Source: Escherichia coli
GTDB taxonomy: Bacteria > Pseudomonadota > Gammaproteobacteria > Enterobacterales > Enterobacteriaceae
Direction: 5' to 3' (one strand)
DNA length: 64,000 nt
NCBI RefSeq assembly: GCF_001677475.2
Contig: NZ_CP015229.1
The number at the start of each line of letters is the position of its first letter. Position 1 is the first letter of the stretch. A program made the position numbers and the translations under genes. Below, in pieces: positions 26,485-60,179 of the stretch. The notes under the pieces were generated by a model. That model saw only the letters and a list, made by a program, of their open reading frames with translations, was not told the origin of the DNA and searched no databases.

Positions 26485-27135
<651 letters not shown>

Positions 27136-28841: not shown

Positions 28842-28863
28842 TACATCCTCTGTATTAAAGAAA

Positions 28864-28887: not shown

Positions 28888-28899
28888 CGGGAGAAGAAT

Positions 28900-29283
<384 letters not shown>

Positions 29284-29284
29284 G

Positions 29285-29664
<380 letters not shown>

Positions 29665-29758
29665 GTTTCTGAACAACTCACCTTGCTGAGCAGAAAAATG
29701 CGATTTAACCAAAAAGCCTGCTGTACACTTAAGAAACAAGAAGGTGTAAGGAGGCGTT

Positions 29759-30292: not shown

Positions 30293-30293
30293 T

Positions 30294-31715: not shown

Positions 31716-31722
31716 ACGCGGC

Positions 31723-32880
31723 TTAACGGGCTGGTGCTTTATCGTTCTCACGCTTAACAACCGGTTTACCAGAGAACAAAAACTTCAGTAATGGGATGCG
31801 TAAATGAATTTCATACAGAATTATCGCAATCCCTACTACGAATATCAGGCCACAGAGAAAACCAAGCCAGTTGGAGGTGATGTGCGGTGTAATGTACGCG
31901 CCGAAAAACAGAGTTAACGGGTGGTGAACCAGATAGATAAACAGCGATGCATTAACAAAGTAAGTCACCCGCGCTGACTGGAAGTTAAGCAAACGGTGGC
32001 CGAAGGAGAAGACCACATTCACCATCCACAGACCGAGGACCATGGTGATCACAGACTCGGTTTCGTACATCCAGGCATCGCCACTGCCATAGCGCTGGTT
32101 GAGTAAGTAAGCGACAAATGCCAATGCTGCTGCAAGGGTACAGCCACGAGACGGCGTGGTAAACAAGGCTTTAAGATGAGGGAAAATGAAAGCCAGTGCG
32201 CCGAGGATAAAGAACGGCAAATAAAATAGCGTTTGCATGACAATAAAATTGAACATGCCGTTACTCAGAATGGGCGGATACACAATAAAAATCGTTCTTC
32301 TTATTACCGCATAGCCGATGCCGAGGCACAAAAAAATCACCGATAGTTTTACCATCGAGAATTTTTTATTCGTTTTATCAGAATTTTCTAAATTATTTCT
32401 GATGCGTTTGAATATCCAGACGCACAGCGTCGTCATGACCACTAACACCAATAAAAACCACAGGTGCGATATTAATTCCCAGGCCAACGTATTATATTTG
32501 TCATACAATGACAGTCCAGGCCAACTTTCCGCTTTCCCTTTGACGTATTGCAGCATAATAAATTGCGGCAATGTCAGTAGGGGGATGGCTGTTAACATCG
32601 GGATCCCTACACGTTCGACACGTACTTTCCACCATTTTTTCAAGGGATAGCGTAAAAAAAGCATGTAGGAAAAGTACCCGGATATAACGAAAAATACCTG
32701 CATGCGGAACGAGTGGATGAAGTCATTAAAAAGGGTCAGCCATAATGACGGTTCGGCGCTATTCACATGCCATGTATGGCTTGAATAGATTAAAGAAATA
32801 TGAAAAGGGATCCCTAACAACATCAGCCAGGCGCGGATGGAGTCGAGGAAATATTCACGTTGCGCGGGTACTGGGTTCAT
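31723..32880 (-). CDS. opgC: Osmoregulated periplasmic glucan succinyltransferase
   Basis: 385-aa polytopic membrane protein at conserved position. Confidence 0.9.
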
Positions 32881-33162
32881 ATATGGTTAACTAATCTCGG
32901 ATTTTTCGTCTTATCCCTGTCGGGTTATGCCTTTAGGCTTGTTGCCATAGCGACACCGATCTGACCACGCCAGGCGCAGGCTTCAAGGTTTTTATGCATA
33001 GCATCATCGCTACCACTAACCAGAATGGAAGCGTCTGTAAGACGGTTGATAAATAAATTTGCTGGCAAACCCTACACGAAGTCGATGCTTCTGTCTTTAG
33101 GAGAAGCACGGAAAGTGAAAACGGTTGCAATCAGGTGCTTAATCCATGAGCCAGCGTGCTGA

Positions 33163-37345
<4,183 letters not shown>

Positions 37346-37355
37346 AAACGTAGTT

Positions 37356-37454
<99 letters not shown>

Positions 37455-37474
37455 AAAAAACGAGCCAATAAAAA

Positions 37475-37500
37475 TACCGGCGTTATGCCGGTATTTTTTT
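37475..37500 (+). terminator. Rho-independent terminator downstream of opgH
   Basis: taccggcg-ttat-gccggta hairpin followed by T7. Confidence 0.7.
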
Positions 37501-37516
37501 ACGGAAGAGGTATCAA

Positions 37517-37744
37517 ATGCGTTTAATTGTGGTGAGCATCATGGTGACCTTGCTGAGTGGCTGTGGCAGCATTATTAGTCGCACTATACCGGGGCAGGGG
37601 CATGGCAACCAATATTATCCCGGTGTGCAATGGGATGTGCGTGACTCCGCCTGGCGTTATGTCACGATCCTTGATCTGCCATTCTCCCTGGTTTTTGATA
37701 CTTTACTGCTGCCGATCGACATTCATCATGGCCCGTATGAGTGA
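37517..37744 (+). CDS. yceK: Lipoprotein YceK
   Basis: 75 aa with lipobox LLSGC. Confidence 0.9.
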   Translation: MRLIVVSIMVTLLSGCGSIISRTIPGQGHGNQYYPGVQWDVRDSAWRYVTILDLPFSLVFDTLLLPIDIHHGPYE

Positions 37745-38119
37745 TTAACGTTCATCCCACTCATCAGCTGCTGCGCGTCCTTCCTCGGTATCCAGCGGTG
37801 GCTCAAGCTGAAATTCCCCCTCGTCCCATTCATGTAATGTATTCTCTTCTTGCCACTCCTGGCGGATCTCTATCTCATCATAGTCGCCGTCAAAGACACT
37901 TTGCGCGGCTTCACCGCTAAGCATAGGTAAACATTCACCTTCTTCCCCTTCGTCGGCAAAAAACTCAACTTGCCACATGATGTCGCCGTCCTGCAAAACG
38001 TATTTTTGGGCATTGAACTGTTGCACATTCGCGTCTTCGGCGTCGATGCCGGGGTTGTCTGCAAGAAATTCTTCGCGTGCAGCGTCAATGGCTTCTTCAA
38101 GCGTTGCGTACATGGTCAT
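37745..38119 (-). CDS. msyB: Acidic protein MsyB
   Basis: 124-aa highly acidic protein MTMYATLEEAIDAAREEF. Confidence 0.93.
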   Translation of the reverse strand: MTMYATLEEAIDAAREEFLADNPGIDAEDANVQQFNAQKYVLQDGDIMWQVEFFADEGEEGECLPMLSGEAAQSVFDGDYDEIEIRQEWQEENTLHEWDEGEFQLEPPLDTEEGRAAADEWDER

Positions 38120-38201
38120 CACGATTCTCCCTTTGAGTTGATGAGGTTTCAGGGAAAAGGATAGCTGATTCTCCGCTTTTGCAAGTATGAAAGGCGAAAA
38201 A

Positions 38202-39428
38202 TCAGTTCGATACCTGGGGTATTCGACGACGACGTAGACTGTTCCATGAATAGATTGCGTTGAATAACACTACGCCAGCGGTGACGAGAAATACCGCTCT
38301 GAAACCGTAGTTCGCTGAAATCGCTGCTCCCATCAATGGTCCGGTAACGTTGCCAATATCACGAAACGATTGGTTATAGCTGAAGATACGCCCGGCGATC
38401 TGGTTGCTCGAGTTATAAACTAACAGTGTCTGTACGGCGGGGAGTAGTGCACCATCGGCGGCACCGAGCAAAAAACGTAAAATCCCAAGTTGTAATGGCG
38501 TCTGAACGTAAGACATTGGGATCAACAGCAGTACAGAAAAGATCAGCGCCGTAATCAGGATCTTTTCGGGTCCGATTCGATCGCCAAGTTTGCCGAGTCG
38601 TGGTGCACTTAGCAGAGCCGCCACGCCTGGCACCGAGGCGATCATGCCACTGATAAAGGCGACGTTACTGACGTTACCCGCCAGTTCGCGGACATACAGC
38701 GTCAGAATGGGGGCAATTGAGCCCGTCGCCACCTGGATGATTAACGTGGTGACAAACAGGCTGAGTACCAGTTTCGGGTTTTTAAGTGATGTCACCACTT
38801 CCCGCATGTGCAGCATCTCTTTTTTGCTGACCGGCTGGAATTTTTCTCTGATGCAGAACAGGGTGACGAAAAAGCAGAGTATGAGCACACTGGCGGTAAT
38901 AAAGAATACCGGACGTAAGCCGTAGCTATCGGCGAGCAAACCGCCAGCCATTGGGCCGAGCAACGCGCCGCTAACGCCGCCTGTGGAGAGCGTACCCAGC
39001 GCCCAGCCGCTTTTATTACGCGGTACTTGTGTGGCGATAAGAGCATTAGCGTTGGGGACAAATCCGCCAAGTAAACCAAGAAGCGCCCGCAGGATCAAAA
39101 ACTGCCAGATATTTTGTGCCAGTCCCATCAACACCATCACGATGCCCATGCCGAGAGCAGAGCGTAATAGCATGAGTTTTCGGCCTTTACGGTCGGCGAG
39201 TCCACCCCAAAACGGTGAGGCGATGGCCGAAAATAAAAATGTAATGCTGAAGACAATACCGGACCACATATTCAGGGCGGAGTGGCCGGTAACGCCAAGC
39301 TGCTCAACGTAGAGGGGTAAGAAGGGCATTACCAGACTGAAGGCGGCACCGGTAAGAAAACAGCCTAGCCAGGCGACGATCAGGTTTCGTTTCCAGTTTA
39401 TAGGGGTGTCATTTTCACAGGGTGACAT
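38202..39428 (-). CDS. mdtG: MFS multidrug efflux transporter MdtG
   Basis: 408-aa MFS protein at conserved position. Confidence 0.93.
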
Positions 39429-39599
39429 AGCAATCCGCTGTTGGTGCGCCAGGCGCGGTGAACATAAGAAGAAAAGATAAGCACACTAATTATGCGCCCG
39501 ACTTCCAGGGGGCGCAATCCAGAGAGCTTTTATCGCTAAATCAGGGGGATTTGCTGTGGTAATGCCGGATGCCATTCTGAAGCATCCGGCATGGAAGAT

Positions 39600-40520
39600 T
39601 TAATAGCGTGAAGGAACGCCTTCCGGGCGTGTTTTAAAGCGACGGTGTAACCACATATACTGCTCTGGTGCCATCATGATGCATTTTTCGACCACTTTGT
39701 TCATCCACGCGGCGGTAGTTTCGGCATCATCCAGCGGCGGAGAACACTCTGGCGGCAGCATAATCAACTGATACCCTTTGCCATCTGGCTTACGGCGTGG
39801 AACAAAGGGCACCAGACATGCGCCGGACATCCGTGCCAGCATCCAGGTTCCGGTCGTGGTTGCAGCCTGCTCAACGGCAAACAACGGGACGAAAACGCTT
39901 GAGCGCGGGCCGTAATCATGATCCGGTGCGTACCAGACCACTTCGCCTTTTTTCAGGGCTTTAATCATGCCTTTTAAATCTTTGCGGTCGAGCATCGATT
40001 TATTTGAGCGCAAACGGCCCCAGGTTTGTAGCCAGTCAATCAGTGGATTATCGTTCGGGCGGTAAACGCCAATGCCCGGCTCCTGCATACCAAACTGCCG
40101 CGCACCCAGCTCCAGGGTCAGAAAATGGATGCCAACTAACAGGATGCCGCGTTTTTGCGCCTGCACGTCACGAATGTGTTCCATGCCGATCACTTCCGTC
40201 CAGCGGGCGATTCGGCGGTCCGGCCAGAACCACGCCATGCCGGTTTCCATCAGGCCCATGCCAACGGATTCGAAATTCTTCACCACCATTTTACGGCGTT
40301 CTTGTTCGCTCATTTCCGGGAAGCACAGTTCCAGGTTGCGATGCACAATTTTTGCGCGTCGTTTCATAAAACGTAACGCCAGTTTTCCTAATCCACAACC
40401 GAGGCGGTAGATAACCGGGTAGGGCAATTGCACGACCAACCAAAGTACGCCAATACCCAACCAGGTTAACCAATAACGCGGATGAAGCAGTGCGGTGGAG
40501 AACTTGGGTAGATTCGTCAT
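39600..40520 (-). CDS. lpxL: Lipid A biosynthesis lauroyltransferase
   Basis: 306 aa starting [17 protein letters not shown]. Confidence 0.93.
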
Positions 40521-40744
40521 ATCAATCCTGTTTTTCAACCTATACGGGCAATTGTATGTATTGTCGCATTTTTTCGTCCGCAACCAAAATTTGTGACTGA
40601 AGACTGGGCGAAATTGCCGCGCTTGTAAATAACAAATAATTTTTAATGCGCAAATGTAGCGTAAAATGTGTGGATGTTAATTATCGATAATTGCTATATC
40701 ATGCCGCGGATTTTTACTTTCCCATCTCGCAGGAACCGTACACC

Positions 40745-41797
40745 ATGCCAGTGTTACACAACCGCATTTCCAACGACGCGTTAAAAGCCAAAATGTTGGC
40801 TGAGAGCGAACCGCGAACCACCATTTCGTTTTATAAGTATTTCCACATTGCCGATCCTAAGGTGACCCGTGACGCTTTATATCAGCTGTTTACCGCGCTG
40901 AATGTTTTTGGGCGAGTGTATCTGGCGCATGAGGGCATTAACGCGCAAATCAGCGTACCTGCGAGCAATGTTGAAACATTTCGCGCGCAGCTCTATGTCT
41001 TCGACCCGGCGTTAGAGGGCTTACGCCTGAATATCGCGTTGGATGATGACGGGAAATCCTTCTGGGTACTGCGCATGAAGGTACGCGATCGCATTGTTGC
41101 CGACGGTATTGACGATCCTCACTTTGATGCCAGCAATGTTGGTGAGTATCTGCAAGCGGCGGAAGTGAACGCCATGCTTGACGATCCCGATGCACTATTT
41201 ATCGACATGCGTAACCACTATGAGTATGAAGTGGGGCACTTTGAAAACGCGCTGGAAATTCCGGCAGATACCTTCCGTGAGCAGCTGCCAAAAGCAGTCG
41301 AGATGATGCAGGCACATAAAGATAAAAAAATTGTGATGTACTGCACCGGCGGCATTCGTTGTGAAAAGGCCAGTGCCTGGATGAAACATAACGGATTCAA
41401 CAAAGTCTGGCATATCGAGGGCGGAATTATTGAATACGCCCGTAAGGCGCGCGAGCAGGGCTTGCCGGTGCGTTTTATTGGCAAAAATTTTGTTTTTGAC
41501 GAGCGGATGGGCGAACGTATATCTGATGAGATTATCGCGCATTGCCACCAGTGCGGTGCGCCGTGCGACAGCCATACCAACTGTAAAAATGATGGCTGCC
41601 ACCTGCTGTTTATTCAGTGTCCAGTATGCGCGGAAAAATACAAAGGTTGTTGTAGTGAAATTTGCTGCGAAGAAAGCGCGTTACCGCCAGAAGAACAGCG
41701 ACGCCGTCGGGCAGGACGTGAAAATGGCAATAAGATCTTTAATAAGTCTCGTGGACGTCTGAATACAACACTGGGCATTCCTGATCCAACAGAATAA
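40745..41797 (+). CDS. trhO: Rhodanese-domain tRNA uridine(34) hydroxylase YceA/TrhO
   Basis: 350 aa starting [17 protein letters not shown]; rhodanese CTGGIRCE motif. Confidence 0.9.
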
Positions 41798-41803
41798 ATA
41801 TCA

Positions 41804-41828
41804 TTGCCGGATGCGTGCCATCCGGCAA
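41804..41828. terminator. Hairpin (ttgccggatg / catccggcaa) between convergent yceA and yceI; putative bidirectional terminator
   Basis: 10-bp perfect stem seen in sequence; no strong T-run. Confidence 0.4.
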
Positions 41829-41838
41829 CATTTCACTC

Positions 41839-42414
41839 TTACTTCTGCTGTACGCCTTCCACTGAAATAATCAGATCCACTTCCTGAGAAGCTGGACCTA
41901 AATCTGTCTTGATATTGAAGTCTTTGAGCTTAATTTTGCCTTCGGCCTCAAAGCCTGCACGTTTACCGCCCCACGGGTCGTCGCCCTGACCAATTAATTT
42001 CGCTTCCAGCGTGACGGGTTTGGTTACGCCATTCAGCGTCAGATCGCCGGTAATATCCAGTTCGTCACCGTCTTTCTTCACGCTGGTGGAGGTGAATGTT
42101 GCCTGTGGATATTTTGCGGTATTGAGAAAATCCGCACTGCGAAGATGTTTATCGCGTTCGGCGTGGTTAGTATCGACGCTGGTGGTGTTAATTGTCACAT
42201 TCACTTTATCGGCAGCTGGATTTTTTTCATCAAAGGTAAAAGTACCGTCGAAATCTTTAAAGGTGCCATATAACCAGCTATAGCCAAGATGCTGGATGCG
42301 GAAGTTAACAAAGGCGTGCTGACCTTCTTTGTCAATTTTGTAATCGGCGGCAACCGCTGAACCGGCAGAGAACATCAGGGACGCGAAGGTTAAACTAAGC
42401 AGGCTTTTTTTCAT
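41839..42414 (-). CDS. yceI: Periplasmic polyisoprenoid-binding protein YceI
   Basis: 191 aa with signal peptide; conserved position. Confidence 0.93.
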
Positions 42415-42417
42415 TTT

Positions 42418-42984
42418 TTATACTCCATAGTCAGATGACGACTTTCCCAGCATGCGCTTCAGAGTGTCGTCTTTATCGATGAAATGATGCTTCAGGGCCA
42501 TAAATCCGTGCATAACAGACAGTACTACGACGCTCCACGCGAGCCAAAAATGCATGGCACCGGCAAAGTCTGCCTGTGCGCCAGCGTCGGCAAGGGTCGC
42601 GGGGACGTCAAACCAGCCAAAAACGCTGATCGGTTTACCATCGGCAGTTGAGATCAGATAGCCGCTGATGCCGATGGCGAACAGCAATAGGTACAATGCG
42701 AGATGTCCAGCTTTCGCGGCAAGACGAGTCATGGGCGAATAACTCGGCAGCGGACCCGGCGGTGGAGATATGACATGCCACAGAACGCGAATAACCAGCC
42801 CCATCATTAACAAAATACCGATGCTTTTATGCAGTTCGGGTGCTTTGTGATACCAGCCATCGTAATAACTGAGAGTGACCATCCACAGACCTAAAGCAAA
42901 CATGCCGTAGACAATAATTGCGCTTAGCCAATGGAAGGCCGCAGATATAACACCATAGCGTTCAGGGGTATTTGTGAATGACAT
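42418..42984 (-). CDS. yceJ: Cytochrome b561 homolog YceJ
   Basis: 188-aa membrane protein starting MSFTNTPERYGV. Confidence 0.9.
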   Translation of the reverse strand: MSFTNTPERYGVISAAFHWLSAIIVYGMFALGLWMVTLSYYDGWYHKAPELHKSIGILLMMGLVIRVLWHVISPPPGPLPSYSPMTRLAAKAGHLALYLLLFAIGISGYLISTADGKPISVFGWFDVPATLADAGAQADFAGAMHFWLAWSVVVLSVMHGFMALKHHFIDKDDTLKRMLGKSSSDYGV

Positions 42985-43245
42985 AAGTGCATCCAAAACG
43001 AATTTGCGAGAGAAAGAAAATGGCGTGTCGGAGAATGAATTGCAACACAAAAATAACAAATTGAATGATATTTATTTTTATTTCAATAATTTTGAATTAA
43101 TAATGAAAGAATCTTCATAAGTTTAGTGGGTTCAGCATCAGAGATGTCTGGTGAGTGCTGTAGAAGCAGGAAGAATCTCATTCAATTTTTCACGCTAAAT
43201 GAAAGGGAGATTAAATATTTGTCAGTTTATGTCAGTGCGGAAAGA

Positions 43246-43359
43246 CTAAAAATAAAACACGTAGATCAGGTCCATAATTGCCAATAGTCCCCAGAGAAAA
43301 AGATAAAGCATCAGATGCTCGCGAATATTATTGATGAGATAGTGCAACAGCCGACGCAT
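43246..43359 (-). CDS. yceO: Small membrane protein YceO
   Basis: Reverse-strand translation [37 protein letters not shown]; not in supplied ORF track (too short). Confidence 0.6.
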
Positions 43360-43406
43360 TAAATACTCCTGTAAAAACGGCCTCATTCTGGAGGCCGTAA
43401 TGATGA

Positions 43407-44525
43407 TTATTGGAAGCGGGAAAGCCTGAATGGCGTTAAATCAAAATCGCTTTTTTTGTCTTGCGCAAAATCGGCAGCTATTTCCCCTAAAACTGACGCA
43501 AATTTAAAACCGTGCCCACTCAGGCCGGTAATGAGCAGTGTATTATCGTGGCCGGGTAGGGTATCGATAATAAAATCTTCGTCAGGCGAATTATCATAGG
43601 TGCAGGCAGCGCCGTACAGGCAGCAACCGATACCCGGCAATACATTGCGCAAGAACGGGAAGGCTTCTGACCCATCACTGGCCACTTCCGCAAACGGAAC
43701 ACGTTCATCCGCTGAATGGATAACCTGGCCTCCGTTATGTTTGCCAATCTTCAACGCGTCGTTTTCTGCCGGAAAACCATAATATTGATCGCCATTGGGC
43801 AGTTCACCGGTAAACGCCGGGAATTTATTCTTCACGCTATAGCGGCCATCGGCCTGATACCAGGCAAATACTTTACGTACGGGCTGGACAGGCAGCTCCG
43901 GGAGCAGGTCTTTTACCCATGTTCCCGCGCAGACAATCGCTTTTTTCGCCTGATACTCACCGTCAGCTGTTTCAATAGTTACGCCATCATCGCCATGACG
44001 AATTGCGGTGACCGGGCAGTTGAACAGTTGCGCACAGCCCGCTTCCTTCGCCAGTTGGATCCAGGTTTTAATCGCCAGTTCGCTGCGCAAAAAACCGGAA
44101 TCAGTCTCAAATAAGCCGATGTAGTTGTCCGGGACGCGTATTTCTGGCCAGCGGGCCATAATCCCTTGCGCATCGAGCTTTTCAACGTTGAGTTGCCACT
44201 GTTCGGCGCTGTGGGCGACGTTGGCGAGAAATGCGGAGTCAGCCGGGCCGAGGTTAATGACACCAGAGCGTACAAAAATGGGATCATCTTCGTTGTGGCG
44301 GGAGAGATCATCCCACAGTGTTTGCGCGCGGAGGACCAGCGGGACATACTTTTCGCCTTCACCATAAGCATGGCGAATTAATCGCGTATCGCCGTGGTGG
44401 CTGCCGTGTTGATGCGGTGGCATATGGGCGTCGGTCATTAGCACGTTTAAACCGGCGCGGGTTGCATAATACCCGGCGGCAGCGCCTACGGAACCGCTGC
44501 CAATAATGATGAGATCGTATTTCAT
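43407..44525 (-). CDS. solA: N-methyl-L-tryptophan oxidase
   Basis: 372 aa; N-terminal FAD motif [15 protein letters not shown]. Confidence 0.93.
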
Positions 44526-44639
44526 TTTTTTCTCTCTGCTCTCATGGTTTAAGCAGAGTAATTAACTGAATGCAGATATACAACCCAGAAATGGTAAAGG
44601 CACCGGTGAGGTGCCTTTTGGGTGGATGGTCATGTCATG

Positions 44640-44894
44640 TTAATGACGCCGATACTCGTTTACCTGGAAATCACCGGATTCAATTTTGGCGATTCCTGCT
44701 TCTAATATCGAAATAAATTGTCTGGCAACATCAGTGGTTAACCAGAGCGTTTGACCAACTTCAGTCCCTTCCTGCTCGGACTTATTTGGGGTCTGGTAGT
44801 GCAAACGCAACATCAGCGCATCATAGCTATCAACGGTGCTGATGTCCCACCCTACGAGCGGATGAGTCTGAATGACTTCATTATTTTTTTCCAT
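44640..44894 (-). CDS. bssS: Biofilm regulator BssS
   Basis: 84 aa MEKNNEVIQTHPLVGW. Confidence 0.9.
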   Translation of the reverse strand: MEKNNEVIQTHPLVGWDISTVDSYDALMLRLHYQTPNKSEQEGTEVGQTLWLTTDVARQFISILEAGIAKIESGDFQVNEYRRH

Positions 44895-45183
44895 CATGGC
44901 CCCCTAATTCGTGTTACTAGACAACGTTATTCGAGGTTCAATGCGTTTTTATCTGAAGCAACTTCAGTATACCAATAAGTAAGGGTATTCACCGAATTTT
45001 TAAAGGGGGAAACAGATAAATTTTTGCTTTTAAGATTTATATGAACAATAAAACAGCATGTCATTCATATTTTTTTAGCATATTGTGCAATTATTTTGAG
45101 GAAGTGTAGAAATTTTGTGCTCGAAATTTGTAAGTAAAATAAAAAAGCCGGGGCGACCCGGCAAAAACAAAAATCACTGCGTA

Positions 45184-45429
45184 TTATTCGCTGACAAACC
45201 AGTCATCGGCGCTTTCCCACGTTTCCTGGAGAATTTCGCTAATGCGCTGTTTATCTTCTTTTGTCGCGCCAATAACCGATAAATTATTCGCTGCGGCATA
45301 ACGTACCGATACGTGGCCTTCATTGTCAGGAAACGCATACTGAATACGGCGGGAAAGTTCGCCAGCCAGGGCGTCAATAGCCCCAGCTGGCAATGGAGAA
45401 GTTTTCGCTATGGTGACTTCAATTCGCAT
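45184..45429 (-). CDS. dinI: DNA damage-inducible protein I
   Basis: 81 aa MRIEVTIAKTSPLPAGAIDALAGELSRRIQYAF... Confidence 0.93.
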   Translation of the reverse strand: MRIEVTIAKTSPLPAGAIDALAGELSRRIQYAFPDNEGHVSVRYAAANNLSVIGATKEDKQRISEILQETWESADDWFVSE

Positions 45430-45450
45430 AATAGCCCCCTGTTGAATATA

Positions 45451-45466
45451 CTGGTTATTTATACAG
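45451..45466. promoter_or_regulatory. LexA (SOS) box upstream of dinI
   Basis: CTGGTTATTTATACAG fits palindromic CTG-N10-CAG, located about 20 bp upstream of dinI start. Confidence 0.7.
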
Positions 45467-45502
45467 GTAAAATAACCTAATGACAACAGGAAGCTACGAT
45501 TT

Positions 45503-46549
45503 TTATTGTTTAACGGACCAGCGTACCGTTTCCCCGGCGAGGAATGGCACCAGTGTGTCATCAGTCAGTGCGATGCTTTCAGCAACCTGTTGCTCTTCAC
45601 GTACCAGTTCGATGAATGTGTCGTTGACCGGCAACCCATAGAACTGCGGGCCGTTTACAGAACAGAATGCTTCAAAGTGCTGCAAAGCATTCATCTCTTC
45701 AAAGACGGTAGCGTAACTGCCCAGCGCGGTTGGGGCGTTGAAGCAGCCCGCGCAGCCGCAACTGCTCTCTTTGCGATGACGTGCATGTGGCGCAGAATCC
45801 GTACCGAGGAATACTCGATTAAAACCGCTGGCGACCAGTTCACGCAATGCCTGTTGGTGAATATTGCGTTTGAGGATGGGTAAACAATACAGGTGCGGAC
45901 GCACGCCACCAACCAGCATATGGTTGCGGTTAAACATCAGATGCTGCGGAGTGATGGTGGCAGCCAGCCGTTCATTTCCGTCACGGACATAGTCGGCAGC
46001 ATCTTTGGTGGTGATGTGCTCAAAAACGACTTTCAGCGCAGTCAGGCGCTGGCGCAGCGGTTCCATCACGCTTTCTATAAAACGCGCTTCACGATCAAAA
46101 ATGTCGATATCTGCATGTGTCACTTCACCATGCACCAGTAGCGGCATACCGATTTTTTCCATGCGCTCAAGTACCGGCATGATTGCGTCAATTGACGTCA
46201 CGCCGTGGCTGGAGTTAGTGGTTGCGTTTGCCGGGTAAAGTTTTGCAGCGGTGAACACGCCTTCGTTAAATCCGCGCTCCAGCTCATTAGGATCCAGCGA
46301 ATCTGTTAAATAACAGGTCATCAATGGGGTGAAATCGTGCCCGGCAGGTACGGCGTCAAGAATACGCTGGCGATACGCCACGGCAGCCTCAACAGTGGTC
46401 ACGGGCGGAGCCAGATTGGGCATTACGATAGCCCGTCCATAAATTTCGCTGGTATATGGCACGACAGTTTTTAACATGTCGCCATCGCGGAGGTGAAGGT
46501 GCCAGTCATCTGGGCGGCGGATCTTTAATACCTGGGATGGTGCAGTCAT
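45503..46549 (-). CDS. pyrC: Dihydroorotase
   Basis: 348 aa; [23 protein letters not shown]. Confidence 0.95.
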
Positions 46550-46654
46550 TAATCTCTATGCTCCGGCTGAAGGGATGTTTTTGCCGGACACAAAGGATAA
46601 GCGGAAACGTTTTCCTTTGCACGAAAAATAAAGGGCGCGAATGCGCCCTCGTGA

Positions 46655-47215
46655 TTAATCAGTAAACGGAATGACAATTTCGCCTGGCTTCACTTCAATG
46701 CCTTTCGCCAGTTTCTTCGCCATTGCTTCGCCCTGGCTGCCATCTTCGCGCAGGACGTAAGCTGGTTGCTGGTTAAAGTAATTGCGTAATGCCTGGTTCA
46801 AATAGGGGAGCAACGTTTGCATCACCGTTTGCATTTTTTCCGGTTGTACCGTCGCATCGACCACTTCCATCTCTTTCAGGAAGATCGCACCTTTTTCTTT
46901 ATCAAACACGGGCAGCGCTTTCAGCTTCAGTTTCATGGTCGCTTTCTGGCTACCGAACAGGGAGTTCATGTCCAGATTGGCGTCTCCGGTTAGGGTAACC
47001 TTATTCGGCTCTTCGCGACCAATTTGGCTGGTCAGGTTTGTCAGAACAATATGGGCGTCAGCCACGCCGGGTAAACCGATATCTTTTGAGAAATTATTAT
47101 GTTTCGCAAGCGACTGGTTAATTTCTTGTTCGGTGATGGTGTATTGGGTGAGTTGATTACAGCCAACGAGCAGGCCACTGACGATCAATGCAGCGGCAAA
47201 TAAAAACTTGTTCAT
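46655..47215 (-). CDS. yceB: Lipoprotein YceB
   Basis: 186 aa; MNKFLFAAALIVSGLLVGC lipobox. Confidence 0.9.
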   Translation of the reverse strand: MNKFLFAAALIVSGLLVGCNQLTQYTITEQEINQSLAKHNNFSKDIGLPGVADAHIVLTNLTSQIGREEPNKVTLTGDANLDMNSLFGSQKATMKLKLKALPVFDKEKGAIFLKEMEVVDATVQPEKMQTVMQTLLPYLNQALRNYFNQQPAYVLREDGSQGEAMAKKLAKGIEVKPGEIVIPFTD

Positions 47216-47348
47216 GGTAGTCCTCGACATGAAATCTGCGTCAATATCCTGACACAACGCAGCATGTGTCACCAGCGATAAACGCGCCAGCAGAAAAAAC
47301 TGAAAACGGCGGCAACCCGCGAATACAGGCTGCCGCGGCGGGTCAGGA

Positions 47349-47996
47349 TTAAATCGCCATTGATGATAACAAATTGATTTGTGTCTGTTTCGCCATATTA
47401 TCGCGGTAATCAGCAACGCGGCTTGGCCAGTTGATTCCGGCTACCAGCGTCAGATTACGCAGCAGCGGAAATAGCTGAATATCATCTTCCGAAAGTTCGC
47501 CATTCACGGCGTTCGGTTTGACGATCAGTTTGTCCAGCGCACGTAAATCATCGCTGATATTCTTAATCAGACCGTCAGAGTGGGCCAGCAGGTCGGCAAA
47601 ATTACCCGCGCTGGCCTCTTTCTTGTCGACGAAATATTTGCGCGCGGCGGGAGTAGAAAACTCATCAAATGCCGATTTGGCAAAACGAGGCAACAGCAGT
47701 TTGTTGGCGTAGCCATTGACCTTGCGCAGCCACTCTTCAATGGCAGGGGAACGTTTGCCGGTCAGTAACGGTTTGCCGTCGAGTTTATCGACATAGTGAA
47801 CGATGTCCATGCTTTCTGGCATATAGCGGCTGTCATCTTTTTGCAGAATGGGAACCTGTTTTTGACCGACCATCCGGGTGGGTGTTTCTGCGTCGTCGTT
47901 GAGCAGAACATGTAATTCGACGGGGATATTTTTCAGGCCGAAAATCATGCGGGCTTTGAGGCAGTAAGGGCAGTGATCGTAAATGTATAGCTTCAC
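47349..47996 (-). CDS. grxB: Glutaredoxin 2
   Basis: 215 aa; MKLYIYDHCPYCLKARMIFGLK with CPYC active site. Confidence 0.95.
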   Translation of the reverse strand: MKLYIYDHCPYCLKARMIFGLKNIPVELHVLLNDDAETPTRMVGQKQVPILQKDDSRYMPESMDIVHYVDKLDGKPLLTGKRSPAIEEWLRKVNGYANKLLLPRFAKSAFDEFSTPAARKYFVDKKEASAGNFADLLAHSDGLIKNISDDLRALDKLIVKPNAVNGELSEDDIQLFPLLRNLTLVAGINWPSRVADYRDNMAKQTQINLLSSMAI

Positions 47997-48059
47997 GTGA
48001 CTCCTCCATTTGGCTGTCAGTTCACTTTCAGTATGGAGGAGTCAGGGGGGAGTATCAAA

Positions 48060-49268
48060 TCAGGCGTCGCGTTCAAGCAAACGACGCGCGGCGCGTTTCT
48101 GGCTAAACTGCCAACCCAGCGCAAGGAAAGTGAAGATGCCAATAATGCCCAGCATCATCCACGGAAGCTCTGGCTGGTGCGCCGATTTGCCTAGGTCAAA
48201 CAGCCAGCCACCACCGATATAACCAATAGCGCCGCCAATCGCCAGACCCAGACGGCTAAACCCCATATAGCTGCCGCGAGCTCTTGCGTCCGCCAGCGAA
48301 GCACTTAAGGTTTCTCGCGCAGGCTCGGCAATGATCGACCCGATATAAAACAGACAAATTAGAGTGAAAAGTTGTTGCAGGCCGCTGACCATGCCCACCG
48401 GCATCATGCTTAATGACATTATCAACAGCCCAGCCATCAACCGGTGTTCCAGACGAAAATGCTTTTCACTCCAGCGGGCGATAGGGTAGAGCAACGTTAA
48501 CGACAGACACGCTTCAATGGCATACATCCATTTAACGGCAGAGGGCGCGCCAGCCACGTCGTTGACCATAATTGGCAGCATCAGCATCACTTGTACAGCC
48601 AGCATGTAGTAACCCGCCAGCGTCAGAACATAGGTGACAAAACGCTTGTCGCGCATCACGCGGGTCATGCCTTCGCGAACGGGCGTGCGTACGGTGGAGA
48701 GTTTCCATGCTGGTAACAACCACGCATTGAACGCTGCACACAGCACAAACAAAACGGCCCCTGTGGCGCAGACCAGGCGAAAGTCGTATTGCAACAGCCA
48801 GCTCCCCAACAATGCGCCAATGACCGCACCGGCACTGTCCTGCATCATCAACAGCGAGAAAAAACGACCACGCTGTTGTGGACGGATTAGTTTCACCACC
48901 AGCGCCGAACGTGGCGGATCAAACAACGTGCCGCCGAGTCCCGAAAGCAGGCATGAAAACCATAATAGCCACGGTTCGTGGGCGATACCCATTGTGGCGA
49001 ATCCGGCGGCACGCATCAGCATACCGGTAACAATCATCGGTTTGGCACCAAAGCGGTCGGCAATTGCGCCGCCGAAAATACCCAGACCTTGCTGAATAAA
49101 CTGGCGTAGACCGAGAGCAATACCGACCATGACGGCGGCCCAGCCCATTTGATCAACGAAGCGGATAGAGATCAGCGGGAAGACAACAAAGAACCCCAGC
49201 ACGACCAGCATATTATCGATGAGCAGGAAATATTTACCCAGGTTCCTCGCCTGCGACACGCGGGACAT
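48060..49268 (-). CDS. mdtH: MFS multidrug resistance protein MdtH
   Basis: 402 aa starting [14 protein letters not shown]. Confidence 0.93.
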
Positions 49269-49503
49269 TTCCCCTCCCGGGAAATAAAAGATGAGCACTT
49301 TCTATTCTGCATTGCCGCTAAGACTTTTCCCATCACTTCGGGGACAATATTTTTTTATCAAAACGTCGCTTTGATAGAGAGTTTTTATCAAATATGTGAA
49401 TAATGCAGAAAATGGCATTTTGGACTTTTCACAGGGTCTGGTTGCGCAGGTATAGTAATACTTACAGCGTATTAAAGACGTTACGGGAAGGAGTAGGTAT
49501 AGA

Positions 49504-50746
<1,243 letters not shown>

Positions 50747-50747
50747 A

Positions 50748-51671
50748 GTGAAAAAATTACGTATCGGCGTAGTGGGATTAGGCGGCATTGCGCAAAAAGC
50801 GTGGTTACCGGTGCTGGCGGCAGCGTCTGACTGGACGATACAAGGAGCCTGGTCGCCTACGCGCGCGAAAGCCCTGCCAATTTGTGACAGCTGGCGCATT
50901 CCTTATGCTGATTCGTTATCCAGCCTTGCCGTCAGTTGCGATGCGGTTTTTGTGCATTCCAGCACCGCCAGCCACTTTGACGTGGTCAGTACGTTACTCA
51001 ATGCGGGGGTACATGTCTGTGTCGATAAACCGCTGGCAGAAAATCTGCGCGATGCTGAACGGCTGGTGGAACTGGCGGCGCGGAAAAAACTGACGTTGAT
51101 GGTCGGTTTTAACCGTCGTTTCGCACCACTCTACGGTGAGTTAAAAACGCAACTCGCCACCGCAGCCTCGCTAAGAATGGATAAACATCGTAGCAATAGC
51201 GTCGGGCCACACGATCTTTATTTCACGTTGCTGGATGATTATCTGCATGTGGTGGATACCGCGCTGTGGTTGTCGGGTGGTAAAGCCTCTCTGGATGGCG
51301 GTACGCTACTGACTAACGACGCTGGCGAAATGCTGTTTGCCGAGCACCATTTTTCGGCTGGTCCTTTGCAGATCACCACCTGTATGCATCGCCGTGCCGG
51401 AAGTCAGCGTGAAACCGTGCAGGCCGTTACTGACGGTGCGCTCATCGACATTACGGATATGCGCGAATGGCGTGAGGAGCGTGGGCAGGGTGTAGTGAAT
51501 AAACCGATTCCTGGTTGGCAGAGCACTCTTGAGCAACGTGGATTTGTCGGCTGTGCGCGGCACTTCATTGAATGTGTGCAAAATCAGACAGTTCCGCAAA
51601 CCGCCGGCGAACAGGCAGTGCTGGCGCAACGTATCGTTGACAAGATCTGGCGCGATGCGATGAGTGAATAA
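50748..51671 (+). CDS. yceM: Gfo/Idh/MocA-family oxidoreductase YceM (MviM)
   Basis: GTG start; KKLRIGVVGLGGIAQKAWLPVL Rossmann N-terminus; 307 aa. Confidence 0.9.
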   Translation: MKKLRIGVVGLGGIAQKAWLPVLAAASDWTIQGAWSPTRAKALPICDSWRIPYADSLSSLAVSCDAVFVHSSTASHFDVVSTLLNAGVHVCVDKPLAENLRDAERLVELAARKKLTLMVGFNRRFAPLYGELKTQLATAASLRMDKHRSNSVGPHDLYFTLLDDYLHVVDTALWLSGGKASLDGGTLLTNDAGEMLFAEHHFSAGPLQITTCMHRRAGSQRETVQAVTDGALIDITDMREWREERGQGVVNKPIPGWQSTLEQRGFVGCARHFIECVQNQTVPQTAGEQAVLAQRIVDKIWRDAMSE

Positions 51672-51693
51672 ACCCTGTAACATCTGGCGGTAG

Positions 51694-53316
<1,623 letters not shown>

Positions 53317-53355
53317 CAATGCATTCCGGCCTGCAGTGCAGGCCGGAGATAATCT

Positions 53356-53772
53356 TCAGATCGAAATCTTTTTACTGCCGCGATGGGGGGTTGAGGTCTG
53401 ACCGTTCGCCCCATATAGCGTCGGTTCCTGATGCGGTTTCAACATTTCCAGCGCCTGTTGATTGCGCTCAATCTGTCCTTCCAGTAACCAGCCGTTATGT
53501 TGATTCATTTGGCGTAGTTGCTGCGTTTTCACAGTAATTTCCTGCCAGCGTTGACTAATATCAACGCTATTTGCTGTATTGGGTTCTTTCCTGCGTAACT
53601 GTTCGAGGTAATCCAGCGTCGCCAGCAGTGAGCTTTTTTGTTCTGTAATCCATTGCAACTGGCTGCCGTTGATCTGCCCCATAGAGAGATGTTGCTGCTC
53701 TTGATCCATTACCGTTTTGAGATCGTTAAGCACAGCGGACATCTGGTCGAGGATCTCTGCAAGACGCGTCAT
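53356..53772 (-). CDS. flgN: Flagellar export chaperone FlgN
   Basis: 138 aa; conserved position. Confidence 0.95.
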   Translation of the reverse strand: MTRLAEILDQMSAVLNDLKTVMDQEQQHLSMGQINGSQLQWITEQKSSLLATLDYLEQLRRKEPNTANSVDISQRWQEITVKTQQLRQMNQHNGWLLEGQIERNQQALEMLKPHQEPTLYGANGQTSTPHRGSKKISI

Positions 53773-53776
53773 ACGA

Positions 53777-54070
53777 TCAGTTACTCTGCAAGTCTTGCTG
53801 AGCTTCGTTGATCAGCGCATCGGCAATTTTGCCGGTGTCCATTTTTAGTTCACCGTTACGAATCGCCAGTTTTAACGCTTCGACACGTTCAAGATTGATA
53901 TCACTGCTGCCGGGTTGCATCAGTTTTGCTTGCGCGTCGCTTAACGTCACACTGGTGCTGGTGGAGGCTGTTGTTTTTGCCGCCCGGGTGTTCGTTACCG
54001 GCGCGTCAGTGGTTTCGCGCGGTTGAACGGTGCTTACGGGCTTCAGAGGCGAAGTGCGATCAATACTCAT
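53777..54070 (-). CDS. flgM: Anti-sigma-28 factor FlgM
   Basis: 97 aa; conserved position. Confidence 0.95.
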
Positions 54071-54145
54071 GGTTTATTCCTCATTGAGGGCGCTTTTATC
54101 ATGTGTTGCTTATTTATCGGCAAGGGACGGGTAATCTTTAACAGC

Positions 54146-54805
54146 TTACAGGTTTATAAGAATATTCCCATCTGCATCAACAACGCCGCTGACCACCAGT
54201 CCCGATACCATGCGCACCCGCGCATTCTGTGCGACGGCTGCATTGTTTAGCGCCTGACCTTCTGCGTTGGCGCTAAACCCGTCACCGCTGGCGATCACGT
54301 TGACGCGTTGTCCCGCTTTTACCCGCCATGCCTGGCGAAACTGGGTTAACTGGATAGGTTGATCGGGTGATAGATCGCGCAGGCTAACGGCATCAACAAG
54401 TTGATTGATATCCAGCACCGTACGCGGTGGCAAGGTGTCCAGCCGTCCGCGTTTCAGTTTGACATTGCCAGCTTCCAGCTTTCCTCCCCGCACAATGGGC
54501 ATTGCGGCAACCACATAATTTCCTGTGGCCTGCACATTAACCTGTAAATATCGTTTGTCGTTACCGCAGCGTGCCAACACATTCACATTGCCCCACAGGC
54601 GGGAATTATTGCTCATCGAAAGCAATGGCTGCTCGCACGGCGGTAGTAGATTGGGCGCTGTACGAATAGAAACACGAACCTCATCACTTACCCCCGCGAG
54701 CTGGGCGCTAAAAAAGGTGTGCAATTGCGATGTGAGATTGCTCGCCGCACTTAACGGACTGAACAGTATCGCTATGATCGCCACGCTACGTTTTATTGCC
54801 AGCAT
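54146..54805 (-). CDS. flgA: Flagellar P-ring assembly chaperone FlgA
   Basis: 219 aa from MLAIKRSVAIIAILFSP. Confidence 0.9.
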   Translation of the reverse strand: MLAIKRSVAIIAILFSPLSAASNLTSQLHTFFSAQLAGVSDEVRVSIRTAPNLLPPCEQPLLSMSNNSRLWGNVNVLARCGNDKRYLQVNVQATGNYVVAAMPIVRGGKLEAGNVKLKRGRLDTLPPRTVLDINQLVDAVSLRDLSPDQPIQLTQFRQAWRVKAGQRVNVIASGDGFSANAEGQALNNAAVAQNARVRMVSGLVVSGVVDADGNILINL

Positions 54806-54960
54806 TTTCGCCCCCCAGCCATTTCTACAACGTGAATTGTACCTGTCCGCAATGACCATCAACGGCATAAATAGCGACCCATTTTGCGTTTATTCCGCCG
54901 ATAACGCGCGCGTAAAGGCATTTAAGCTGATGGCAGAATTTTGATACCTGCGGAGGAGAT

Positions 54961-55377
54961 ATGCTCGATAAGCTCGACGCCGCCTTACGTTTTCAACAAG
55001 AGGCGCTCAATCTGCGCGCCCAGCGTCAGGAAGTGCTGGCAGCAAACATCGCCAATGCCGATACCCCTGGTTATCAGGCTCGCGATATCGATTTTGCCAG
55101 TGAACTTAAAAAAGTCATGCAACGTGGACGGGATGCAACAAGCGTGGTTGCACTGACGATGACCTCAACGCAACACATTCCGGCGCAGGCGCTGACGCCT
55201 CCTACCGCAGAACTGCAATACCGTATTCCGGACCAGCCCTCGCTGGATGGTAATACCGTCGATATGGATCGCGAACGCACTCAGTTTGCCGATAACAGCC
55301 TGCAATACCAGATGAGCCTTAGCGCGTTGAGCGGGCAAATCAAAGGCATGATGAACGTTTTACAGAGCGGAAATTAA
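54961..55377 (+). CDS. flgB: Flagellar basal-body rod protein FlgB
   Basis: 138 aa. Confidence 0.95.
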
Positions 55378-55380
55378 CGG

Positions 55381-55785
55381 ATGGCACTGCTGAATATTTT
55401 TGATATCGCCGGGTCGGCGTTAACTGCCCAGTCCCAGCGCCTGAACGTGGCGGCCAGTAATCTGGCGAATGCTGATAGCGTGACCGGTCCCGATGGACAG
55501 CCATATCGGGCAAAACAGGTGGTATTTCAGGTTAACGCTGCGCCAGGTGCTGCGACAGGCGGCGTAAAGGTGGCCGATGTTATAGAAAGTCAGGCCCCGG
55601 ACAAACTAGTTTATGAACCGGGTAATCCGCTGGCGGATGCAAAGGGCTACGTGAAAATGCCAAACGTTGATGTCGTCGGGGAGATGGTTAACACCATGTC
55701 GGCGTCACGCAGCTATCAGGCCAATGTTGAAGTGCTCAACACGGTGAAAAGCATGATGCTGAAAACCCTTACGCTCGGTCAATAA
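55381..55785 (+). CDS. flgC: Flagellar basal-body rod protein FlgC
   Basis: 134 aa. Confidence 0.95.
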
Positions 55786-55796
55786 AGGAGAAAGCT

Positions 55797-56492
55797 ATGT
55801 CCATTGCGGTAACCACAACCGATCCGACAAATACCGGCGTCAGCACCACCAGCAGTAGTTCGCTCACGGGCAGCAACGCCGCAGATTTACAAAGCAGTTT
55901 TCTGACTTTGCTGGTGGCGCAGCTGAAAAACCAGGACCCGACCAATCCAATGGAAAACAACGAGCTGACGTCGCAATTGGCACAAATCAGCACGGTTAGC
56001 GGGATTGAAAAACTCAATACCACGCTCGGATCTATTTCCGGACAGATTGATAACAGCCAGTCGTTACAGGCCAGTAACCTGATCGGTCACGGCGTGATGA
56101 TCCCCGGCACCACTGTTCTTGCGGGAACCGGCAGTGAAGAAGGGGCTGTGACCACGACCACGCCGTTTGGTGTTGAGTTGCAACAGGCGGCAGACAAAGT
56201 TACGGCCACCATCACCGATAAAAATGGCGCGGTTGTGCGCACCATTGATATTGGTGAACTGACCGCCGGAGTCCACAGTTTCACCTGGGACGGTACGTTG
56301 ACTGACGGCAGCACTGCGCCGAACGGTTCTTACAACGTAGCGATTAGCGCCAGTAACGGTGGTACACAACTGGTTGCCCAGCCGCTGCAGTTTGCTCTGG
56401 TGCAGGGTGTGATCCGCGGCAACAACGGTAATACGCTGGATCTCGGCACTTACGGCACCACCACCCTCGACGAAGTACGGCAGATAATTTAA
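55797..56492 (+). CDS. flgD: Flagellar hook capping protein FlgD
   Basis: 231 aa. Confidence 0.95.
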   Translation: MSIAVTTTDPTNTGVSTTSSSSLTGSNAADLQSSFLTLLVAQLKNQDPTNPMENNELTSQLAQISTVSGIEKLNTTLGSISGQIDNSQSLQASNLIGHGVMIPGTTVLAGTGSEEGAVTTTTPFGVELQQAADKVTATITDKNGAVVRTIDIGELTAGVHSFTWDGTLTDGSTAPNGSYNVAISASNGGTQLVAQPLQFALVQGVIRGNNGNTLDLGTYGTTTLDEVRQII

Positions 56493-56516
56493 GCCTTCAC
56501 ATTTCAGGAGTCAGTC

Positions 56517-57722
56517 ATGGCCTTTTCTCAAGCGGTTAGCGGATTAAACGCTGCCGCCACCAACCTCGATGTTATTGGCAACAATATCGCCAACTCCGCC
56601 ACCTACGGCTTTAAATCAGGCACGGCCTCTTTTGCCGATATGTTTGCCGGTTCGAAAGTGGGACTGGGGGTAAAAGTTGCTGGTATCACTCAGGACTTTA
56701 CCGATGGCACGACCACCAACACCGGGCGTGGTCTGGACGTTGCTATCAGCCAGAACGGTTTTTTCCGTCTGGTAGACAGCAACGGTTCGGTGTTCTACAG
56801 CCGTAACGGACAATTTAAGCTGGATGAAAATCGTAACCTGGTGAATATGCAAGGTTTACAGCTGACGGGTTACCCGGCAACCGGTACGCCGCCGACTATT
56901 CAGCAAGGGGCGAATCCGACTAACATTTCGATCCCGAATACCCTGATGGCAGCGAAAACTACCACCACTGCGTCGATGCAGATCAACCTGAATTCCAGCG
57001 ATCCGCTTCCCTCTGTTAACGCATTTGATGCCAGCAATGAGGATAGCTATAACAAAAAAGGTTCGGTGACTGTTTTCGATAGTCAGGGTAATGCTCATGA
57101 CATGAGCGTCTACTTTGTGAAGACCGGGGATAATAACTGGGAGGTTTACACCCAGGATAGCAGTGATCCAACAGGCACAGCTGACCATGCAATGACGCTG
57201 GTGTTTAATGCCAATGGCGTTCTGACGTCAAATCCAACAGAGAATATTACAACTGGCGCAATTAACGGTGCAGAACCCGCCACGTTTAGCCTGAGCTTCC
57301 TCAACTCCATGCAGCAAAATACTGGCGCTAACAACATTGTGGCAACCACCCAAAATGGCTACAAACCGGGCGATCTGGTGAGTTATCAAATCAATGATGA
57401 CGGTACGGTTGTTGGCAACTATTCCAACGAACAAACCCAACTGCTGGGGCAGATTGTACTGGCGAACTTTGCCAACAACGAAGGTCTGGCATCCGAAGGC
57501 GACAACGTCTGGTCTGCGACGCAATCTTCTGGCGTGGCGCTGTTGGGGACAGCCGGGACGGGCAACTTTGGCACCCTGACCAACGGTGCGCTGGAAGCGT
57601 CCAACGTCGATCTCAGTAAAGAACTGGTCAATATGATCGTTGCCCAGCGTAACTATCAATCTAACGCCCAGACCATCAAAACCCAGGACCAGATCCTCAA
57701 CACGCTGGTTAACTTACGCTAA
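56517..57722 (+). CDS. flgE: Flagellar hook protein FlgE
   Basis: 401 aa; MAFSQAVSGLNAAATNLDVIGNNIANS. Confidence 0.95.
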   Translation: MAFSQAVSGLNAAATNLDVIGNNIANSATYGFKSGTASFADMFAGSKVGLGVKVAGITQDFTDGTTTNTGRGLDVAISQNGFFRLVDSNGSVFYSRNGQFKLDENRNLVNMQGLQLTGYPATGTPPTIQQGANPTNISIPNTLMAAKTTTTASMQINLNSSDPLPSVNAFDASNEDSYNKKGSVTVFDSQGNAHDMSVYFVKTGDNNWEVYTQDSSDPTGTADHAMTLVFNANGVLTSNPTENITTGAINGAEPATFSLSFLNSMQQNTGANNIVATTQNGYKPGDLVSYQINDDGTVVGNYSNEQTQLLGQIVLANFANNEGLASEGDNVWSATQSSGVALLGTAGTGNFGTLTNGALEASNVDLSKELVNMIVAQRNYQSNAQTIKTQDQILNTLVNLR

Positions 57723-57741
57723 TCGCTGACGGGATAGCTCA

Positions 57742-58497
57742 ATGGATCACGCAATTTATACCGCGATGGGAGCAGCCAGTCAGACGCTGAATCAACAGGC
57801 GGTAACCGCCAGTAATCTGGCCAATGCCTCTACGCCCGGTTTTCGCGCGCAGTTAAACGCCTTGCGCGCAGTGCCGGTGGAAGGGCTTTCACTGCCCACG
57901 CGCACGCTGGTAACGGCGTCAACACCGGGTGCAGACATGACGCCCGGCAAGATGGATTACACCTCGCGCCCGCTGGACGTTGCGTTGCAGCAGGATGGCT
58001 GGCTGGCCGTGCAGACCGCTGACGGCAGCGAAGGGTATACGCGTAATGGCAGCATTCAGGTTGATCCCACCGGGCAACTGACAATTCAGGGGCATCAGGT
58101 GATAGGCGAGGCGGGGCCAATTGCTGTGCCGGAAGGGGCGGAAATCACTATTGCTGCCGATGGCACAATCTCGGCGCTCAATCCGGGCGATCCGGCAAAT
58201 ACGGTTGCGCCAGTAGGGCGTCTGAAACTGGTGAAAGCCACGGGCAGCGAAGTGCAGCGCGGTGACGACGGCATTTTTCGTTTAAGCGCAGAAACCCAGG
58301 CCACGCGTGGGCCTGTACTGCAGGCAGATCCAACCTTGCGTGTGATGTCGGGTGTTCTGGAAGGCAGTAACGTCAATGCCGTTGCGGCAATGAGCGACAT
58401 GATTGCCAGCGCGCGGCGTTTTGAAATGCAGATGAAGGTGATCAGCAGCGTCGATGATAACGCAGGCCGTGCCAACCAACTGCTGTCGATGAGTTAA
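57742..58497 (+). CDS. flgF: Flagellar proximal rod protein FlgF
   Basis: 251 aa. Confidence 0.95.
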   Translation: MDHAIYTAMGAASQTLNQQAVTASNLANASTPGFRAQLNALRAVPVEGLSLPTRTLVTASTPGADMTPGKMDYTSRPLDVALQQDGWLAVQTADGSEGYTRNGSIQVDPTGQLTIQGHQVIGEAGPIAVPEGAEITIAADGTISALNPGDPANTVAPVGRLKLVKATGSEVQRGDDGIFRLSAETQATRGPVLQADPTLRVMSGVLEGSNVNAVAAMSDMIASARRFEMQMKVISSVDDNAGRANQLLSMS

Positions 58498-58571
58498 TTG
58501 AACGATTGATGACATTGCAATAAAAGCGAGCGGACTATTCCCTCGCCCCTTTGGGGAGAGGGTTAGGGTGA

Positions 58572-59417
<846 letters not shown>

Positions 59418-59469
59418 GGCATAACCGGTGGCAGGTTCACCGGTTTACTGATTTTTGAAGATGATAGCC

Positions 59470-60168: not shown

Positions 60169-60179
60169 GTGAGGCTGTG

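Follow-up and report, generated by a model that had tools for sequence, protein, structure and literature searches.

Published data on the regulation of dinI come from Escherichia coli, Salmonella and Klebsiella. AZT induces the E. coli gene 49-fold, with 39-fold lexA-dependent induction (LexA cleavage; PMC11228462), while nalidixic acid induces dinI of Salmonella 22.8-fold, the LexA box of this gene being placed 19 bp ahead of the ATG (PMC8072944). The Klebsiella dinI box overlaps the experimentally mapped transcription start site (TSS), and its occupancy by LexA in ChIP falls after mitomycin C (PMC10907235). The same study describes the cleavage of the 3' part of the dinI mRNA by RNase E, which gives rise to DinR, an Hfq-dependent sRNA that represses ftsZ. 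DinI acts on RecA filaments (PMC9926225). Furthermore, a SELEX peak of sigma-S RNA polymerase (RNAP) is located in the spacer between pyrC and dinI in K-12 (PMC5493296). The upstream gene pyrC has an RNA element of its own, the PyrC leader (RF02372), in which the start site determines whether a hairpin is formed that masks the Shine-Dalgarno sequence (SD) of pyrC.

The dinI locus considered here belongs to a stretch of E. coli DNA of 64,000 nucleotides (contig NZ_CP015229.1), hereafter called the window. The site flagged in it is the known LexA operator of dinI, a real site that had already been described. The probability that 45449..45468 acts as the LexA operator of chromosomal dinI is put at about 0.97, and for this strain the assignment is based on its sequence and on published data from other strains and species; nothing in the evidence speaks against it. 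The computation carried out here established that the site is identical to the published one, how it scores with a position weight matrix (PWM), where it lies with respect to the promoter consensus, and that it is conserved; lexA-dependent induction and the LexA ChIP data from Klebsiella come from the literature. What is fresh is the place of this operator inside a conserved hairpin, which may stop translation of dinI from transcripts reading through from pyrC.

The LexA Box and the dinI Promoter

Between 43.4 and 48 kb of the window, solA, bssS, dinI, pyrC, yceB and grxB are all carried by the minus strand. The elements next to the site are the following:

45137..45162, minus strand: intrinsic terminator of dinI, GCCGGGTCGCCCCGGC followed by a T-run (terminator scan)
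45184..45429, minus strand: dinI coding sequence, 81 aa, Pfam DinI (PF06183), annotated as dinI in E. coli genomes
45503..46549, minus strand: pyrC (dihydroorotase), upstream of dinI and co-directional (list of open reading frames, annotation)
46550..46599, minus strand: PyrC leader (RF02372), directly upstream of pyrC (gathering-level match in Rfam)

The product of dinI is a member of the family PF06183, which it matches with 102.1 bits (gathering cut-off 24.2; E 2.1e-29). By position, the counterpart of the DinR region of Klebsiella would be the 3' end of dinI together with its terminator (45137..45260, minus strand).

A 73-nt spacer, 45430..45502, separates the stop codon of pyrC from the ATG of dinI. 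Read on the minus strand as AAATCGTAGCTTCCTG-TTGTCA-(17 nt)-TATAAA-TAACCAGTATATTCAACAGGGGGCTATT-ATG, it contains these features:

45481..45486, minus strand: predicted -35 hexamer TTGTCA, 17 nt from the -10; its TTG is invariant or nearly so in orthologous spacers
45449..45468, minus strand: LexA (SOS) box, the 20-mer ACCTGTATAAATAACCAGTA (match to the published dinI box, PWM, heterology index, conservation)
45458..45463, minus strand: predicted -10 hexamer TATAAA, wholly within the LexA box; its alignment columns are invariant or nearly so
45450..45452, minus strand: predicted transcription start of dinI, near 45451, about 7 nt downstream of the -10 from which it is placed, and inside the LexA box
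45435..45439, minus strand: SD of dinI, the G-run GGGGG, 5 nt before the ATG, invariant or nearly so in the alignment

The 20-mer is an imperfect palindrome with a CTG-N10-CAG core and an AT-rich centre, as expected of a box of the Escherichia/Gammaproteobacteria type, and ends 19 nt before the ATG of dinI. It is letter for letter the dinI LexA box of PMC3009722 (Table 4), and the 25-mer that this table gives for dinI, TTACCTGTATAAATAACCAGTATAT, occupies 45446..45470 of the minus strand without a mismatch. The first-pass annotation, which had presented the site as a confirmation and not as a novelty, was thus right, since the site was already published. It had also located the site correctly: reading of the sequence and a motif search both find the 16-mer core CTGGTTATTTATACAG at 45451..45466 on the plus strand, and the interval that it had delimited is exactly the spacer running from the pyrC stop to the dinI ATG.

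The same 20-mer, 25-mer, 73-nt spacer and gene order bssS-dinI-pyrC occur in K-12, so that the site itself shows no difference, whereas the surrounding genome is that of another E. coli lineage (about 98.4% identity). The spacer is 100% identical to that of K-12 derivatives and of 3740 E. coli records, and of 5426 complete E. coli genomes, 4692 have an identical copy of the LexA box together with the 10 nt that flank it on either side. Five of about 5400 E. coli matches to the spacer fall on records typed as plasmids, which could be due to mis-assembly or to chromosomal segments carried by plasmids.

With the other Gammaproteobacterial SOS boxes (recA, sulA, umuDC, lexA, uvrB, etc.), the dinI box shares the imperfect CTG-N10-CAG palindrome, the AT-rich centre and the overlap with the promoter. 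It differs from the consensus by its flanks (AC...TA versus TA...TA) and its 3' half (ACCAG versus TACAG), which is ordinary variation.

In the strain studied here, the -35, the -10 and the transcription start are predictions based on consensus. On this same basis, the best -10 candidate of the spacer, TATAAA, is held by the LexA box. A consensus promoter scan listed only two matches, both on the plus strand and at chance level; it missed the dinI promoter because it requires a T at position 6 of the -10, whereas this -10 ends in A. Spanning both the predicted -10 and the predicted start, the LexA box has the layout that is classical for repression through promoter occlusion. The predicted start also agrees with the mapped TSS of Klebsiella dinI, which overlaps the LexA box of this species (PMC10907235).

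The Surrounding Genome

The window does not come from K-12. Positions 1..21400 are occupied by a variable island adjoining a tRNA-Ser gene (21506..21590, minus strand), which carries two-partner-secretion/filamentous-haemagglutinin, ShlB-type, beta-ketoacyl-ACP synthase and ABC transporter genes. K-12 lacks this island here, and among 5426 complete E. coli genomes only 378 contain it at full length (best identity 98.6%). Positions 21442..64000 share about 98.4% identity with K-12 BW2952 over the common 42 kb. Over the 901-bp dinI region, identity goes no higher than 99.0% in any complete E. coli genome, yet the pyrC-dinI spacer matches that of K-12 at 100%. Beside the tRNA-Ser gene, K-12 (L096:20722-21525) harbours a tandem array of 4.4 copies of a 181-bp unit, annotated as RtT sRNA repeats, whereas the window (about 20700..21525) has a single copy of the unit and no tandem array. 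Two other sRNAs give gathering-level matches in Rfam, ES056 (27191..27282, minus strand), upstream of csgD, and ES036 (CssrF; 37377..37419, minus strand), near the mdoH/yceK junction.

Conservation of the Box in Enterobacteriaceae and Phages

A scan of one genome per species yielded 80 chromosomal dinI loci, belonging to Escherichia, Citrobacter, Salmonella, Enterobacter, Lelliottia, Kluyvera, Kosakonia, Buttiauxella, Atlantibacter, Cedecea and other genera, with pyrC directly upstream of dinI in nearly all of them. A PWM was built from 17 published E. coli boxes, i.e., the 18 boxes located upstream of UV-induced genes in Table 4 of PMC3009722 minus that of dinI. With this dinI-free matrix, every one of the 80 orthologous loci has a LexA box of 21.0-27.9 bits that precedes dinI and keeps the same orientation. 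The gap between box and ATG, usually 19 nt, is 18-20 nt in 74 of these loci (75 with locus L066, where it reaches 21 nt). As a control, the 238 kb flanking the orthologous loci contain one site of at least 14 bits.

The box is also kept where the spacer has been enlarged. In two Buttiauxella species (gaviniae / brennerae; L076:1362-1488, L094), a 127-nt dispersed repeat lies between the LexA box and the SD, and this insertion places the box 145 nt from the ATG of dinI. This repeat, which appears to be ERIC/IRU-like, also occurs in E. coli, where genomes contain a median of 7 copies with 80-85% identity. In the same way, Trabulsiella (L047, L048) has about 43 extra nt between the LexA box and the SD.

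DinI homologues are encoded by 162 phage records. Among them, 14 diverse homologues (33-50% amino acid identity) were sampled, and all 14 are preceded by a LexA box of 16.6-27.9 bits, located upstream of the gene or of a small operon, whereas about 0.002 such boxes per locus would be expected. The prophage homologues of Gifsy-1/2/3, the tum operons of 186/P2-like phages and dinL of phi80 have a LexA box ahead of a DinI-family gene, and the annotation of phi80 includes a predicted LexA site upstream of its dinI homologue. The gap to the ATG is 19 nt in Gifsy-2 and in the Klebsiella phage Kpn_R1 and 18 nt in the Citrobacter phage Chris1. Some phages have two boxes, or else a box that precedes a small ORF and stands 200-300 nt upstream. 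The phage boxes are nearer to the consensus than the chromosomal dinI box, reaching 27.9 bits, and none of the phage loci has pyrC upstream or the context of a hairpin pairing with the SD. The occurrence of boxes in both the orthologues and the phage homologues indicates that LexA control is a trait of the whole DinI family.

A Conserved Hairpin around the Operator

The minus-strand RNA of the spacer is predicted to fold into a long hairpin (-33.3 kcal/mol; z -4.65; 0/200 shuffles). This conserved hairpin (45431..45497, minus strand) pairs the sequence found just past the pyrC stop with the SD of dinI. Its parts, identified from the RNA fold and as inverted repeats, are:

45484..45497, minus strand: 5' arm GUAGCUUCCUGUUG, starting 6 nt past the pyrC stop and overlapping the TTG of the -35
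45477..45470 with 45460..45453, minus strand: inner 8-bp stem GGUUAUUU/AAAUAACC
45431..45444, minus strand: 3' arm CAACAGGGGGCUAU, containing the SD of dinI and ending 1 nt before the AUG

Both the LexA box and the promoter fall within the 39-nt loop that separates the outer arms, and the half of the LexA box that is proximal to the promoter forms the 3' arm of the inner stem. Only the Escherichia clade has this inner stem, the apical stem of other genera being formed by the LexA palindrome itself. The outer stem is 14 bp long in E. coli, and most genera share a G-CCCCC-UGU / ACA-GGGGG-C core. Spacers of the Citrobacter freundii group keep a GUAGCC/GGCUAC pairing despite a 10-nt deletion.

Of the 74 distinct orthologous spacers, every one has a minimum-energy fold (mean z -4.2) in which the G-run of the SD is paired with bases that precede the LexA box on its 5' side, and in 48 the sense strand gives the more stable fold. 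On the alignment, the 9-bp core of the hairpin is 80-100% paired, and the variation of its 5' arm consists mostly of C to U changes that keep a U.G pair. Compensatory changes are absent from the core on this alignment, because the 3' arm is constrained as the SD. The outermost pairs covary weakly to modestly (30 cells versus 18.2 +/- 3.8; 31/5000 permutations). RNAalifold, applied to a MAFFT alignment of 76 spacers, found essentially no consensus structure, and the Rfam scan gave no family match for the pyrC-dinI hairpin. The weakness of covariation in fixed columns is due to the register of the hairpin, which differs between clades (bulges, 10-nt deletion of the Citrobacter freundii group). 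Alignment-free duplex tests of arm pairing therefore replaced fixed-column covariation. In these tests, the mean pairing energy of the two flanking segments is -20.0 kcal/mol, versus -8.3 when the 5' segment is shuffled. Furthermore, the pairing of each spacer's own arms (-19.98) is better than that of arms swapped between species (-18.83 +/- 0.18), and 0/2000 permutations were as good.

Such a structure raises the question of whether the palindrome could owe its conservation mainly to a role in RNA, as the apical part of a 3' hairpin or terminator of pyrC, and not to a role as a protein operator. The location of the LexA box in the loop of the conserved hairpin and the fact that its palindrome is the apical stem of the predicted fold in many genera would fit this explanation. 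However, conservation follows recognition by LexA, CTGTATA.A....CAG being invariant whereas the centre is not self-complementary. The box is moreover retained in Trabulsiella and Buttiauxella, where the geometry of the hairpin is disrupted, as well as ahead of phage homologues that have no pyrC upstream, and both ChIP (PMC10907235) and lexA dependence (PMC11228462) have been published. Conservation mainly as an RNA element is thus very improbable. The operator role and a role as an RNA element are mutually compatible.

Specificity of the Site in the Window

The bare CTG-N10-CAG motif is a poor detector of LexA sites in coding DNA, where it over-calls: the window contains 29 matches versus 11.3 +/- 3.8 in dinucleotide shuffles, an excess probably due to CTG and CAG being common, favoured codons. 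The 16-mer pattern is by itself inadequate evidence for a LexA site, and the PWM test was therefore run on the full site. The perfect consensus TACTGTATATATATACAGTA has no match in the window at up to 3 mismatches, since the dinI box departs from it at 5 of its 20 positions, which makes the consensus search uninformative. Such a departure is common among functional boxes.

With the leave-one-out PWM, the dinI site scores 22.28 bits and ranks first among about 128,000 positions (both strands of the window). This score was reached in 0/300 shuffles, and its exact tail probability is 1.4e-8 per position, i.e., 0.0018 expected per window. The next-best site (13.06 bits, 32869..32888) is at a level attained in 164/300 shuffles and thus corresponds to chance; on both strands of the window, the PWM detected no other LexA site above chance. 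Among the 18 known boxes, whose leave-one-out scores range from 10.7 to 28.1 bits, that of dinI comes 6th, a mid-range score. Its leave-one-out heterology index is 4.95 (0.6-12.8 for known sites), and a value of 4.8 is attributed to Courcelle et al. 2001 in PMC11228462.

The PWM scan was the test that the first-pass annotation had named as able to refute the site, and the box passed it as the best of the window. The SOS regulation of dinI that it had called known is borne out by the published lexA-dependent induction by DNA damage (PMC11228462) and by the box found in 80/80 orthologues. That the CTG-N10-CAG match is a mere chance occurrence in an AT-rich spacer, devoid of operator function, is the least probable explanation of all and is refuted by the PWM scan and by conservation: the abundance of the bare motif, above the shuffle expectation, and the lack of a match to the perfect consensus at up to 3 mismatches would speak for it, but against it stand the PWM score with its 0.0018 expected sites per window, the identity to the published dinI box, the retention of the box in every orthologue and in 14/14 phage homologues, and the published lexA dependence of dinI (PMC11228462).

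Proposed Regulation of dinI and Possible Role of the Hairpin

In the proposed mechanism, a LexA dimer binds the 20-bp imperfect palindrome ACCTGTATAAATAACCAGTA (45468..45449, minus strand). As this palindrome covers both the predicted -10 TATAAA and the predicted transcription start of dinI, bound LexA excludes RNA polymerase. After DNA damage, RecA filaments trigger the self-cleavage of LexA, the operator is vacated and strong transcription of dinI follows. DinI in turn binds RecA filaments and thereby modulates the SOS response.

The hairpin could add a second layer to this control. Since transcripts that begin at the predicted dinI start lack its 5' arm, it would form only in RNA reading through from pyrC. 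The median predicted probability of an unpaired SD is 0.001 in such read-through RNA versus 0.26 in RNA beginning at the predicted dinI start, with the higher value in the latter in 62 of 76 spacers. It is therefore conceivable, though the odds are put at somewhat under even, that the conserved hairpin blocks translation of DinI from read-through RNA and/or represents the 3' hairpin of the pyrC mRNA, LexA-controlled transcripts being translatable. The favoured guess is that a pyrC 3' hairpin would also block DinI translation from read-through transcripts.

The hairpin was also considered as a canonical intrinsic terminator. Its stem is G+C-rich, but the short loop (3-8 nt) and the immediate U-run typical of such terminators are lacking, the tail being UAUGCGAA on the sense strand. 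This candidate was rejected because of the 39-nt loop and the absence of a U-run. Likewise, the terminator scan listed nothing at the pyrC-dinI hairpin on the minus strand. The Term-seq supplement text that was searched has no 3' end at the hairpin, which is weak negative evidence, and the Term-seq, Rend-seq and TERMITe supplements provide no usable 3' end there. None of the papers searched links a pyrC terminator to dinI.

The closest parallel is the PyrC leader. As in this leader, the pyrC-dinI hairpin would sequester an SD only in those transcripts that hold the upstream arm. However, the leader discriminates between alternative starts of one promoter, whereas the pyrC-dinI hairpin would separate read-through RNA from promoter-initiated RNA.

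The value of the LexA site itself is that of a positive control, a real and published operator having been recognised from raw sequence alone. The hairpin, if true, would be of modest importance: a promoter and its operator would be nested in an RNA structure that would insulate a dose-sensitive modulator of the SOS response from the transcription of its metabolic neighbour.
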